Positions 36,870 to 39,900 of a stretch of DNA of 64,000 nucleotides are shown here, in pieces (position 1 is the first letter of the stretch; each line of letters starts with the position of its first letter). Source of the stretch: Promethearchaeia archaeon (GTDB lineage Archaea; Asgardarchaeota; Lokiarchaeia; Sigyniarchaeales; SOKP01). The notes beneath the pieces were generated by a model that saw only the letters and a program-made list of their open reading frames with translations, did not search any database and was not told the origin of the DNA. Made by a program: the position numbers and the translations under genes. Location: assembly GCA_029856155.1 (NCBI GenBank), contig JAHQWL010000052.1, positions 1 through 64,000 on the forward strand. Direction: 5' to 3'.

Positions 36870-37502
36870 ATGGGAAAACTAAAAATAGGAGCAATTGCAT
36901 CTGGTTCGGGCTCGAATTTTGAAGCAATAGTTAACGCATGTGAAACGGGGATTTTAAAAGATAAAGCAACTGTAAAAGTATTAATTTGTAATAAAGTTGG
37001 AGCTTATTGTATGGAAAGAGCTAAAAATCATAATATACCTTATGTTTTAATTGAATCAGACAAGCATAGAGGAACAAGAGAGGAATTTGACCAGAAAATG
37101 ATAGAGGTGCTAAAAAAATACGGAGGTGAACTTATTGTGCTTGTTGGTTACATGCGTTATATCAGTGAAATGTTCTTAGACCATTTTAAAGGGAATATTA
37201 TGAATATTCACCCGGCTCTTCTTCCGAGTTTTAAAGGTATGCATGCCCATGAAGACACATTAGCCTATGGCGTTAAGGTCTCGGGAGTAACTGTTCATTT
37301 TGTGGATATTCATGAAGATCATGGACCCATAATCATCCAAAAATGTGTGCCTGTTTATGATACAGATACTAAAGAGACTTTAGGCCCTCGAGTTTTAAAA
37401 TGGGAACATAAGGTTTTTCCAAAAGCCATAGAACTTTTCTGTGATGGGAGATTGCATATTGATGGAAGAATAGTACGTATTGATGGTGAAGTTAAATTAT
37501 AA
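36870..37502 (+). CDS. purN: Phosphoribosylglycinamide formyltransferase
   Basis: SGSGSNFEA, NIHPALLPSF, SGVTVHFV, DHGPII. Confidence 0.96.
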   Translation: MGKLKIGAIASGSGSNFEAIVNACETGILKDKATVKVLICNKVGAYCMERAKNHNIPYVLIESDKHRGTREEFDQKMIEVLKKYGGELIVLVGYMRYISEMFLDHFKGNIMNIHPALLPSFKGMHAHEDTLAYGVKVSGVTVHFVDIHEDHGPIIIQKCVPVYDTDTKETLGPRVLKWEHKVFPKAIELFCDGRLHIDGRIVRIDGEVKL

Positions 37503-37521
37503 ATTCCTCTTACTAATAATA

Positions 37522-37622
37522 GGGAAATGATTTTTTAATGTGCTATCTGACCCAACTGAAATTGATAATATTATTATCAATTAAATGAAGAAGATCTTGA
37601 GTAGCGAGAAAAATCATTTCCC
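37522..37622 (+). ncRNA. Candidate box C/D guide sRNA (predicted target tRNA-Leu(CAA) C34)
   Basis: 14-bp terminal stem, D' CTGA, C' ATGAAGA, covarying C/D boxes, guide GATCTTGAGT. Confidence 0.7.
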
Positions 37623-37710
37623 GCTTATTTTCATTAAACATAAATCCTAAGATTTTAATCAAAGTATTTATAATCTTAAATAATATCGTAGAAATGTTAA
37701 TCATTGAAAA

Positions 37711-39900
37711 ATGCCGCATCGAAAGGAAATATCCGAAATACTGAATTTAATGGAGAAAACTGAGAATATTAGAAATTTTGGCCTTGTAGGTCATATAGAT
37801 CACGGAAAGACTACGCTTTCTGATTCTTTATTAAGTGAAGCGGGATTTTTATCACCGGATTTAGCAGGTGAAGCACGAGCTTTAGACTTTCTTGAAGAGG
37901 AACAAAGAAGAGGCATTACTATGAAATCTGCAAACATTTCTTTATATTATGAGAAATCTCTTGAAGGACATGATCCATTTCTTATTAATTTAGTTGATAC
38001 ACCAGGTCATTTGGATTTTAGCGGAAAAGTAACTCGTGCCTTAAGGCTAGTTGATGGTGTTGTTGTAGTAGTAGATGCCGTTGAGGAAGTAATTACACAA
38101 TCTGAAACGGTAATTAAGCAAGCTCTCCAAGAAGGAGTTAAACCAGTATTATTCATTAATAAAATAGATCGTTTAATAAGAGAATTGAAGCTTTCTGATG
38201 AAGAGATTAAAAAGAAATATATAAGGATAATTAAATCATTTAACATCCTAATAGAAAGATATGCCGAACATCCATTCAATAAACGATGGAAGGTATCTCC
38301 ACTAGCGGGAAATGTGGCATTTGGTTCAGCACTTCATAAATGGGGGTTTAATTTAAATATTTTAGAAAAAAGTGCTATAAAATTTAAAGATATTAGGGAA
38401 AGATATAATAAAGACACGTATACAAAAGAAACTTATGCTGACTTACCTATGTATCTTCCAATTCATAGAGCAATATTGGAAATGGTTGTCGATCATTTAC
38501 CAAATCCAAAAGAAGCGCAAAAATATAGAATTGAAAAGATATGGGATGGGGATATTAATTCTGAATTGGGAAAAGCTATGGTTAACTGTGATCCTAATGG
38601 TCCTTTTATAGTATGTTTAAGTAAAGTACAAGTAGATAAACATGGTTTAATCTCAACAGGAAGGATCTTTTCGGGGAGCTGTACAAATAAAAAGGAGATC
38701 TTTCTTTTAAATGAAAATAGTTATGATAGAATTCAAAGAATTGCTATCTTTATGGGACAGAGAAGGGAACAAGTTGAAAAAATACCTGTTGGGAATATAG
38801 TAGCGATAGAAGGGCTCAAAAGGATAAAAAGTGGGGAGACAATAATAGATAGTAATAGTATTGATGGAATGGTACCATTCGAAAGTGTGAAATATATCAC
38901 AACGCCCGTTGTGACTGTCTCCATTGAACCAGAATATCTAAGAGACCTTGAGAAAATGAAAGAATTAATTGAGAAGGTATTAATTGAAGATCCAAATTTA
39001 AGATTCGAAATTAATGAAGAAAATGGAGAATTCTTATTATCTGGGATGGGTCCATTACATCTTGAAGTTACAGCTAATGAAATTGGGAAAAGAGGAGTAA
39101 ATATATCCACTTCAGAACCTAGAGCCGTTTTTAAAGAATCTTGTCGTAAACATTCTTCTTTAATTTCAGTAAACTCTCCCAATGGTCAAGGATCTCTTAA
39201 ATTGAAAATTGAAAGATTAGATGATAAAACTATACGATTTTTTCGAAATATTGATTACAAAACAATAAAACCTTTTAGCAAATTAATAGAAATCTTGAAT
39301 GAAAAAACCTCTCTAGGTAAAGAAGAAGTCGAAAATTTCTTGATGTGTGATTATGATCAAAACATATTAATTTACAAGGGAGATTTTGAACTAACTGACT
39401 TTTATAAAGATATAATTTTTGAAATTGTTGAAAAAATTCATCTAAACGGTCCACTAAGTTCTGAAAAACTTACAGAAATTAAGATAGTTGTTGAGTCTTT
39501 AGATATTGAAAAGATCTCTCAAGAAAATATATTTAATGAATTATCAGTAATGTTCTATGAAGCAATAAAAGCAGGATTAATTGAAGCAGAATTAATTCTA
39601 TTGGAACCAATTTATCATACAATCATCCAACTCCCTCCGGATTACATTAAAAATACGATTACTTTACTTTCAAAATATTCTGCAAAGATTAAAAGTATAG
39701 ACCAAGATAAAGAATACCAAGCAGTTATTGAGATCTTAATGCCGGTAAGGCATTCAATCAAATTTGCTGAAGAAGTTCGATCAACTACATCTGGTAGAGC
39801 TTTTTGGCAGAATGAATTTTTTGCATTTATGGAGGTTCCAAAACACGAATATCAAAGACTTATTAAAGACATTAATTTTTTTAAAGGAATTTCCTGGTAA
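37711..39900 (+). CDS. Translation elongation factor 2 paralog (aEF-2p), no diphthamide motif
   Basis: GHIDHGKT, RGIT, DTPGH, NKID, GMGPLHL; the domain IV HRG motif is absent. Confidence 0.9.
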   Translation: MPHRKEISEILNLMEKTENIRNFGLVGHIDHGKTTLSDSLLSEAGFLSPDLAGEARALDFLEEEQRRGITMKSANISLYYEKSLEGHDPFLINLVDTPGHLDFSGKVTRALRLVDGVVVVVDAVEEVITQSETVIKQALQEGVKPVLFINKIDRLIRELKLSDEEIKKKYIRIIKSFNILIERYAEHPFNKRWKVSPLAGNVAFGSALHKWGFNLNILEKSAIKFKDIRERYNKDTYTKETYADLPMYLPIHRAILEMVVDHLPNPKEAQKYRIEKIWDGDINSELGKAMVNCDPNGPFIVCLSKVQVDKHGLISTGRIFSGSCTNKKEIFLLNENSYDRIQRIAIFMGQRREQVEKIPVGNIVAIEGLKRIKSGETIIDSNSIDGMVPFESVKYITTPVVTVSIEPEYLRDLEKMKELIEKVLIEDPNLRFEINEENGEFLLSGMGPLHLEVTANEIGKRGVNISTSEPRAVFKESCRKHSSLISVNSPNGQGSLKLKIERLDDKTIRFFRNIDYKTIKPFSKLIEILNEKTSLGKEEVENFLMCDYDQNILIYKGDFELTDFYKDIIFEIVEKIHLNGPLSSEKLTEIKIVVESLDIEKISQENIFNELSVMFYEAIKAGLIEAELILLEPIYHTIIQLPPDYIKNTITLLSKYSAKIKSIDQDKEYQAVIEILMPVRHSIKFAEEVRSTTSGRAFWQNEFFAFMEVPKHEYQRLIKDINFFKGISW

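Follow-up and report, generated by a model that had tools for sequence, protein, structure and literature searches.

A conserved, predicted box C/D guide RNA of Loki-type Asgard archaea with complementarity to the tRNA-Leu(CAA) anticodon loop and to a pre-tRNA(CAU) intron

A structured element between a purN-like gene and an EF-2-family gene

The window (the whole 64,000-nucleotide stretch of Promethearchaeia archaeon DNA that was analysed) contains a 101-nt element at positions 37522-37622 on the + strand. It lies between a purN-like formyltransferase gene (36870-37502) and a gene for an EF-2-family GTPase (37711-39900). A genome-wide search found a single copy in this 4.1-Mb, 30% G+C genome, the remaining matches being AT-rich noise. 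The element is therefore neither a repeat nor a MITE, and both identities were ruled out.

The + strand of the element folds with z = -4.9, and none of 200 shuffled sequences folds equally well. The minus strand likewise folds well, because any palindromic stem would do so. Only the + strand, however, has the G-U pairs, box motifs and guides.

A preliminary description, made from the sequence alone, had interpreted the element as a box C/D guide RNA. All of the parts it listed are present at the positions it gave: the 14-bp terminal stem, ATGTGCT, CTGA, a hairpin, ATGAAGA and GCGA. The parts are arranged as in a double-guide box C/D sRNA, with the following features.

37492..37504, + strand: TATA-like A/T-rich element at about -30 to -19 of G37522, overlapping the purN stop codon (37500-02); probable sRNA promoter
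37522..37536, + strand: 5′ strand of the terminal stem (kink-turn C stem), with 14 perfect base pairs (37522-35 / 37609-22) plus a U37536-G37608 wobble
Next to the terminal stem, + strand: 3-nt bulge, AAU in the window copy
37538..37544, + strand: putative box C variant AUGUGCU, in columns shared with the UGA-type C boxes of 57/90 orthologues; G37540 is position 1b, U37541 stands where an A at 2b is expected, and G37542, C37543 and U37544 pair with the box D side
37545..37555, + strand: predicted D′ guide, 11-nt spacer, of which 37546-37554 pair with a 9-nt motif in the pre-tRNA(CAU) intron
37556..37559, + strand: predicted box D′, CUGA; xxGA in 90/90 orthologues
37560..37582, + strand: hairpin closing the internal C′/D′ kink-turn, 10 bp (37560-69 / 37573-82) with a 3-nt loop
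37585..37591, + strand: predicted box C′, AUGAAGA; GA at positions 3-4 in 84/90 orthologues
37592..37603, + strand: predicted D guide, 12-nt spacer, of which 37593-37602 pair with A31-C40 of tRNA-Leu(CAA)
37604..37607, + strand: putative box D variant GCGA; GA at positions 3-4 in 77/90 orthologues
37608..37622, + strand: 3′ strand of the terminal stem
37626..37632, + strand: T-rich run directly 3′ of the stem, with a T-rich stretch kept there in 20 aligned relatives; probable archaeal terminator

The guide spacers of 11 and 12 nt fit the ~12-nt spacing of archaeal box C/D sRNAs, and the spacing is the same in orthologues. Relatives that have another gene upstream keep the A/T-rich block at the same distance from the element. 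Judging from these flanking sequences, the element probably has its own promoter and terminator.

Further downstream, a highly conserved block (37640-37685) precedes the EF-2 paralogue. Within it, two AATCYTAAA-like words flank a TATA-like TTTATAA, and the block is possibly a promoter with a regulator site.

The preliminary description anticipated that consensus-based finders would miss the element, and this is what we observed. A scan against Rfam assigned the element to no family at gathering thresholds. In a permissive scan, the best C/D-type matches overlapping or adjacent to it (DdR2, snoR12, snoZ30) had E-values of 5.8-9.3, i.e., at chance level. A match to U54 (E = 1.2) occurs at 37698-37774, downstream of the element and outside it. 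A strict consensus pattern for C/D sRNAs had 0 matches genome-wide.

Outer boxes and kink-turns

By homology, the outer boxes ATGTGCT and GCGA are true C and D boxes, since orthologues carry UGA-type C boxes and xxGA D boxes in the same columns. The base pairs behind these boxes also covary, and both the box C/D interpretation and the earlier box assignments hold on these grounds. One orthologue genome (G124) has the consensus boxes ATGATGA and CTGA. In one same-genus orthologue, the terminal motif is a textbook kink-turn, consisting of a 13-bp stem, a 3-nt bulge, G-A, A-G and three Watson-Crick pairs.

In the window copy, the stem, the AAU bulge and the G37540-A37607 pair are present, and U37541-G37606 replaces the A-G pair. 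The A at position 2b is nearly universal in kink-turns. The preliminary description had attributed the non-consensus character of the outer boxes to a compensatory replacement of UG/CU by GC/GC. Covariation supports this replacement, in that box D positions 1-2 covary with box C positions 5-6, but the more serious departure was overlooked. By comparison with the orthologous boxes, U37541 at 2b is the main defect of box C in this copy, and the GC/GC swap is the lesser departure.

The full GA/GA core occurs in the same columns in 52/90 orthologues. The A at 2b is missing in 33 of the 90 family members (GT in 16, GC in 15, GG in 2), and the G at 2n is missing in 13. Members that lack the A often have a G-C-rich stem II, along with U-G, C-G or G-U at 2b/2n. 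All members retain the G1b-A1n pair and hold the D guide in the same register to box D. Should L7Ae not bind the U-G motif at 2b/2n in the window copy, the D guide might not direct methylation here, because this guide measures from box D.

By its sequence, the internal C′/D′ kink-turn (AUGAAGA/CUGA) is ordinary. We also considered an alternative arrangement, in which box C would lie inside the terminal stem and D′ at 37547-50. It was rejected, since the guide that it implies varies freely, whereas the boxes of the ATGTGCT/GCGA set covary.

As to the proteins that such an RNA would need, genes for fibrillarin (264 bits) and Nop5 (210 bits) are adjacent to each other on contig C83 of this genome.

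Conservation and covariation

Of 24 genomes sampled from the genus, 21 have a conserved version of the spacer that holds the element, and we aligned the 20 best-matching copies. In these 20 genomes the element is conserved far beyond its AT-rich flanks, and it is also conserved across the order. The first 10 pairs of the terminal stem are paired in 99% of cases across the 20 orthologues, and the G-U variants pair on the + strand only.

We tested the proposed structure on the 20-sequence alignment using 500 shuffles and controls in which the pairing partners were slid. In the proposed structure, 87% of cells are standard pairs, compared with 75% in the shuffles, none of which (0/500) reached 87%. 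With slid partners, only 33-55% of cells are paired.

Compensatory changes support both kink-turn stems. In the same alignment, 95% pairing is seen at the three Watson-Crick pairs that follow the terminal G-A position, and each of them has changes on both sides. Position 2 of box D′ and position 5 of box C′ are paired in all 20 sequences (13 U-A, 6 G-C, 1 G-U); this 3b-3n pair of the internal kink-turn shows 7 compensatory changes among the 20. The C′/D′ hairpin is present in all orthologues with differing sequences, and 8 of its 10 pairs are changed on both sides. The covariation among relatives that the preliminary description proposed to look for is thus present in the kink-turn stems, and the element extends across the order.

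A covariance model built from the 20-sequence alignment was run on sampled Asgard genomes. Within the same family (f1; 12 genera), the model found one copy of the element in 108 of the 131 genomes sampled, and it found the element in 8 of 14 from a sister family (f2). Elsewhere in the phylum the matches are weaker; one of the other families has them in 6 of 7 genomes. One sister-genus genome (G087) has two copies of the sRNA (G087:C51:388-487 and G087:C168:4766-4872), and in one of these copies the terminal stem and box C are separated by an insertion.

We parsed the boxes and guides of 90 members from the order. The 10-nt core of the D guide and the 7-nt core of the D′ guide are each identical in all 90. 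No other part of the RNA is conserved to this degree: the hairpin differs freely between members, as do the stem extension and the sequences flanking the boxes. Invariant guide cores in an otherwise variable RNA are the pattern expected of antisense elements that are held constant by conserved targets. Given this sequence conservation and covariation, the element is real and widely conserved in Loki-type Asgard archaea, and it most probably encodes a small guide RNA.

The D guide and tRNA-Leu(CAA)

The preliminary description predicted that the D guide targets tRNA-Leu(CAA), with G37599 opposite C34, and suggested looking for the complementary sequence in this genome. ARAGORN reported no tRNA-Leu(CAA) there. 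We found the exact complement of the D guide as one contiguous stretch in G000:C34:35577-35739 (minus strand), which is outside of the window. ARAGORN labels this gene as a tRNA-Lys(UUU) with a 79-nt intron. This label is wrong, and its loop puts a U at position 37. A long variable arm, together with the GCAGGGA acceptor stem and the A discriminator, identifies the product of this gene as a class II leucine tRNA.

Two introns interrupt the tRNA-Leu(CAA) gene, one after C32 and one near 37/38. In 30 orthologues from the genus, the sequence is invariant up to C32, followed by a variable intron 1, an invariant micro-exon, a variable intron 2 and an invariant 3′ half. The micro-exon is 6-7 nt long, extends from U33 to A38 and consists of anticodon-loop bases only. 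The mature anticodon arm (CCGGA-CUCAAGA-UCCGG) is invariant in the 30 genus genomes despite the variable introns. With two introns in this tRNA, the D-guide pairing spans the 6-7-nt micro-exon.

The D guide and the mature tRNA form a perfect duplex of 10 bp (A31-C40, -15.2 kcal/mol). With the unspliced tRNA of this genome, A37592 adds a pair, resulting in 11 bp and -16.5 kcal/mol. G37599 is the fifth base upstream of box D and pairs with C34, in agreement with the N+5 rule. We estimate the chance of such a match at ~4 in 100,000, from ~46 wobble positions against 4^10 sequences. The prediction of the preliminary description is therefore well supported by the genome's own tRNA, which contains the exact complement, and by the invariance of the guide core. 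Most likely, the element directs 2′-O-methylation of the first anticodon base of tRNA-Leu(CAA), as far as complementarity and register can indicate.

To look for targets, we scanned 30 tRNA genes along with the LSU of this genome and three SSUs from the same genus. Neither guide has an rRNA target of at least 9 nt in this LSU or in the three SSUs. SSU rRNA was not found in this assembly or in most relatives. The LSU rRNA match (G000:C34:3761-7141) is 3381 nt long, compared with a model of 2987 positions, which suggests insertions.

Two observations concern other leucine tRNA sequences. A possible anticodon piece of tRNA-Leu(UAA) occurs at G000:C34:45251 (minus strand, outside of the window). 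This piece may be another D-guide target, in a pairing that would include G-U at position 34 and at one further position. In five species of the same genus (L054, L057, L060, L062 and L063), the alignment of tRNA-Leu(CAA) breaks in the T-loop, suggesting a further intron or a split gene.

The D′ guide and the intron of pre-tRNA(CAU)

The preliminary description could identify no target for the D′ guide, and it proposed a search of rRNAs and tRNAs. Our target scan gave one clean match: positions 37546-37554 form a perfect 9-bp duplex (-16.2 kcal/mol) with a motif in the 33-nt intron of a tRNA gene outside of the window (G000:C5:6736-6843). ARAGORN labels this gene as tRNA-Thr(CGU), which is a misreading. 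The gene is a tRNA(CAU), because its loop reads CUCAUAA in this genome and also in relatives whose intron is located elsewhere. The initiator tRNA is a separate gene. Based on the type of acceptor stem, we take this gene to be the elongator tRNA-Met, though it could instead be tRNA-Ile2. Its T-loop begins with a C where U54 is usual.

The 10-nt intron tag is invariant in 30 genus genomes, and the tRNA-Leu introns of the same genomes drift. In two species of the genus (L091, L096), the intron lies 5′ of the anticodon instead of 3′, and the tag core is kept. The tag is also found in the tRNA(CAU) intron of sister-family genomes. A genome-wide look found no other tRNAs bearing the tag; two pattern scans were too noisy.

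In four distant lineages the D′ guide and the intron tag change together.

G079: guide CCU, tag AGG
G235: guide GACCCCU, tag AGGGGUC
G211: guide UGACCCU, tag AGGGUCA
G238: guide UAGCCCU, tag AGGGCUA

We estimate the chance of each of these 7-10-bp matches between guide and tag, in an intron of 27-60 nt, at below ~1 in 200.

By the N+5 rule, the D′ guide would point to an intronic G that is discarded at splicing, so that methylation of this nucleotide has no obvious use. The D guide also has partial complementarity to the anticodon arm of tRNA(CAU): 8 of 10 core positions match, with central mismatches at 36 and 37, and the duplex alone has -8.6 kcal/mol. In the pre-tRNA, 10-28 nt separate the anticodon site from the tag, and the order of the two is collinear with the D and D′ guides. 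The order is reversed in the two species with a relocated intron, which the two-fold symmetry of the C/D particle would presumably also allow. A simple pattern search for a dedicated guide to C34 of tRNA-Met in this genome gave nothing convincing.

No clean bulge-helix-bulge for either pre-tRNA was derived by hand or from minimum-energy folds, so that the exact splice sites given here are those suggested by exon conservation. In many species of the genus (L073, L074, L078, L080-L084 and others), tRNA(CAU) has an extra D-arm intron of ~30 nt that is absent here; this is a case of presence/absence variation of tRNA introns within one genus.

Proposed function and alternatives

The interpretation that we favor, with a probability of roughly 0.75, is that the element is a box C/D guide sRNA gene of ~101 nt that directs Cm34 on tRNA-Leu(CAA), with a D′ guide that docks on the intron of pre-tRNA(CAU). 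Our analysis shows a structure that is conserved and covaries, guides that are complementary to the two tRNA sequences, and a genome that encodes the enzymes. We infer transcription, protein binding, methylation and a purpose of the intron pairing.

In the proposed mechanism, L7Ae, Nop5 and fibrillarin would assemble on two kink-turns of the sRNA, namely the terminal C/D motif closed by the 15-bp stem and the internal C′/D′ motif closed by the hairpin. The D guide would pair with the anticodon loop of tRNA-Leu(CAA), allowing fibrillarin to 2′-O-methylate the wobble cytidine. The D′ guide would pair with the conserved 8-9-nt intron tag of the unspliced elongator-type tRNA(CAU), and the particle would thereby dock on the precursor. 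Such docking could let the D guide act on C34 of tRNA-Met despite the two mismatches, or it could hold the pre-tRNA(CAU) in a particular fold before splicing.

Of these two roles for the tag, we prefer the first, in which docking on pre-tRNA-Met would enable the imperfect D duplex to direct Cm34 all the same, and we treat a chaperone or splicing timer as the alternative. One guide RNA would then serve two tRNAs, modifying C34 of tRNA-Leu(CAA) through a perfect duplex and C34 of elongator tRNA-Met through a tag-dependent, imperfect 8/10 duplex. Judged by these complementarities, this is a tentative proposal, to which we assign less than even odds. If it is true, a tRNA intron gains a sequence-specific job, and splicing waits for modification. 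Such an arrangement would then exist in those archaea that are nearest to eukaryotes, and would resemble the accessory pairing of eukaryotic snoRNAs.

Among competing explanations of the element as a whole, the one that survives best is that it derives from a C/D RNA but no longer methylates via the D guide here, its terminal kink-turn having decayed, and that it serves as an antisense chaperone or splicing timer for the precursors of tRNA-Leu(CAA) and tRNA(CAU). The 33 members with a base other than A at 2b are consistent with this, as their U-G, C-G and G-U pairs at 2b/2n resemble ordinary helix pairs. So are two properties of the targets: the D-guide pairing covers both splice junctions of the pre-tRNA-Leu micro-exon, and the tag overlaps a 4-bp inner helix of the tRNA(CAU) intron in its minimum-energy fold. 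However, the full GA/GA core persists in 52 of the 90 members, the constancy of G1b-A1n and of the distance to box D is universal among them, and a pure chaperone would not need a perfect N+5 register on C34. We consequently regard this explanation as unlikely, though as the most serious competitor.

It is considerably less probable that the element acts in cis, e.g., as an L7Ae-binding kink-turn switch in a leader or 3′ element controlling the downstream EF-2 paralogue or the upstream purN, with the tRNA complementarity being incidental. The gene order could suggest such a role, since the element is directly upstream of an EF-2-family gene here and in two sister-family genomes, and the gap to the nearest start codon is 88 nt here and 14 and 37 nt in those two. 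However, upstream genes in the two sister-family genomes are unrelated, several genomes have a gene other than purN upstream, and G030 has purN before the element and no EF-2 gene after it. In addition, the element is set apart from the EF-2 gene by the T-run and by a further conserved block that is TATA-like. Moreover, cis regulation leaves unexplained why two invariant single-stranded cores of 7-10 nt match tRNAs and covary with an intron. Our reading is that the element is an independent or leader-processed sRNA gene with old synteny, rather than a cis-regulator.

Least credible of all is that the D′ guide targets LSU rRNA (a G near position 2520 of this genome's 23S) instead of the tRNA intron: the 7-bp match in the genome's own LSU (-14.3 kcal/mol) is shorter than the intron match, and we reject it as a family-wide target because a central mismatch breaks it in g13, g18 and all sampled sister-family genomes, where the D′ guide is unchanged.

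The favored interpretation, a guide RNA that acts on tRNA-Leu(CAA) and docks on pre-tRNA(CAU), would tie the modification of RNA by guides to tRNA genes that are exceptionally rich in introns in this Asgard group. It offers a testable reason for one intron sequence being frozen across the order while neighbouring introns drift. The members that replace the supposedly essential kink-turn A are natural test cases for the tolerance of L7Ae.

Relationship to known guide RNAs

A C/D guide for wobble methylation of tRNA-Leu(CAA) is a kind of element that is already known. Passages on Pyrococcus in two papers describe C/D sRNAs aimed at nucleotide 34 of tRNA-Leu(CAA), Leu(UAA), Met and Trp, and the guide for tRNA-Leu(CAA) is presented there as predicted (PMC7994747, PMC7668247). 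Like this Pyrococcus guide, the element would be a trans-acting C/D RNA whose antisense sequence lies over the anticodon loop, with N+5 on wobble C34 of tRNA-Leu(CAA). No sequence homology between the two was found, in that the element has no Rfam match. The element is also longer (~100 nt versus ~55-60 nt) and has a long terminal stem and a D′-C′ hairpin, in contrast to the short loop of the Pyrococcus guide. Unlike in Pyrococcus, the terminal boxes are degenerate in many members. Finally, the second guide of the element pairs with the intron of another pre-tRNA, whereas that of the Pyrococcus guide is an orphan.

The Haloferax volcanii sR-tMet and the C/D RNP of the pre-tRNA-Trp intron, according to passages in PMC7994747 and PMC4033218, likewise use a C/D RNP to make Cm34 on a CAU or CCA tRNA. 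The pre-tRNA-Trp RNP is described there as acting on the intron-containing precursor. Its guide is encoded by the intron, whereas the intron considered here only carries a short tag that the guide would recognise.

Pairing between a guide RNA and a pre-tRNA intron is known for an H/ACA guide (PMC2651775). The H/ACA sRNAs of Sulfolobales and Aeropyrum that act on position 35 of pre-tRNA-Tyr (PMC2651775) similarly pair with both the anticodon stem-loop and the intron. They differ from the element in being H/ACA RNAs that direct pseudouridylation through a single contiguous pocket; the element has C/D boxes and two separate guides.

The departures from published archaeal examples are the ~100-nt helix-closed architecture, the frequent loss of A at 2b and the co-evolving intron tag. 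Our literature search found no paper on any of these three properties and no published catalogue of guide RNAs in Asgard archaea. A preprint from 2026 deals with the tRNA introns of Asgard archaea and says nothing of guides.

A further parallel lies outside of the archaea. Eukaryotic box C/D snoRNAs with a closed internal C′/D′ stem and accessory base-pairing were reportedly described by van Nues et al. in 2011. The element resembles such snoRNAs in having a helix-closed internal kink-turn, and in that a second antisense contact could strengthen a weak primary duplex. The eukaryotic snoRNAs have rRNA targets, whereas the element is archaeal and has predicted tRNA targets, and its accessory pairing is the one proposed above. 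Its length, its helix-closed internal kink-turn and its second antisense contact are unusual in archaea, and are more typical of eukaryotic snoRNAs.
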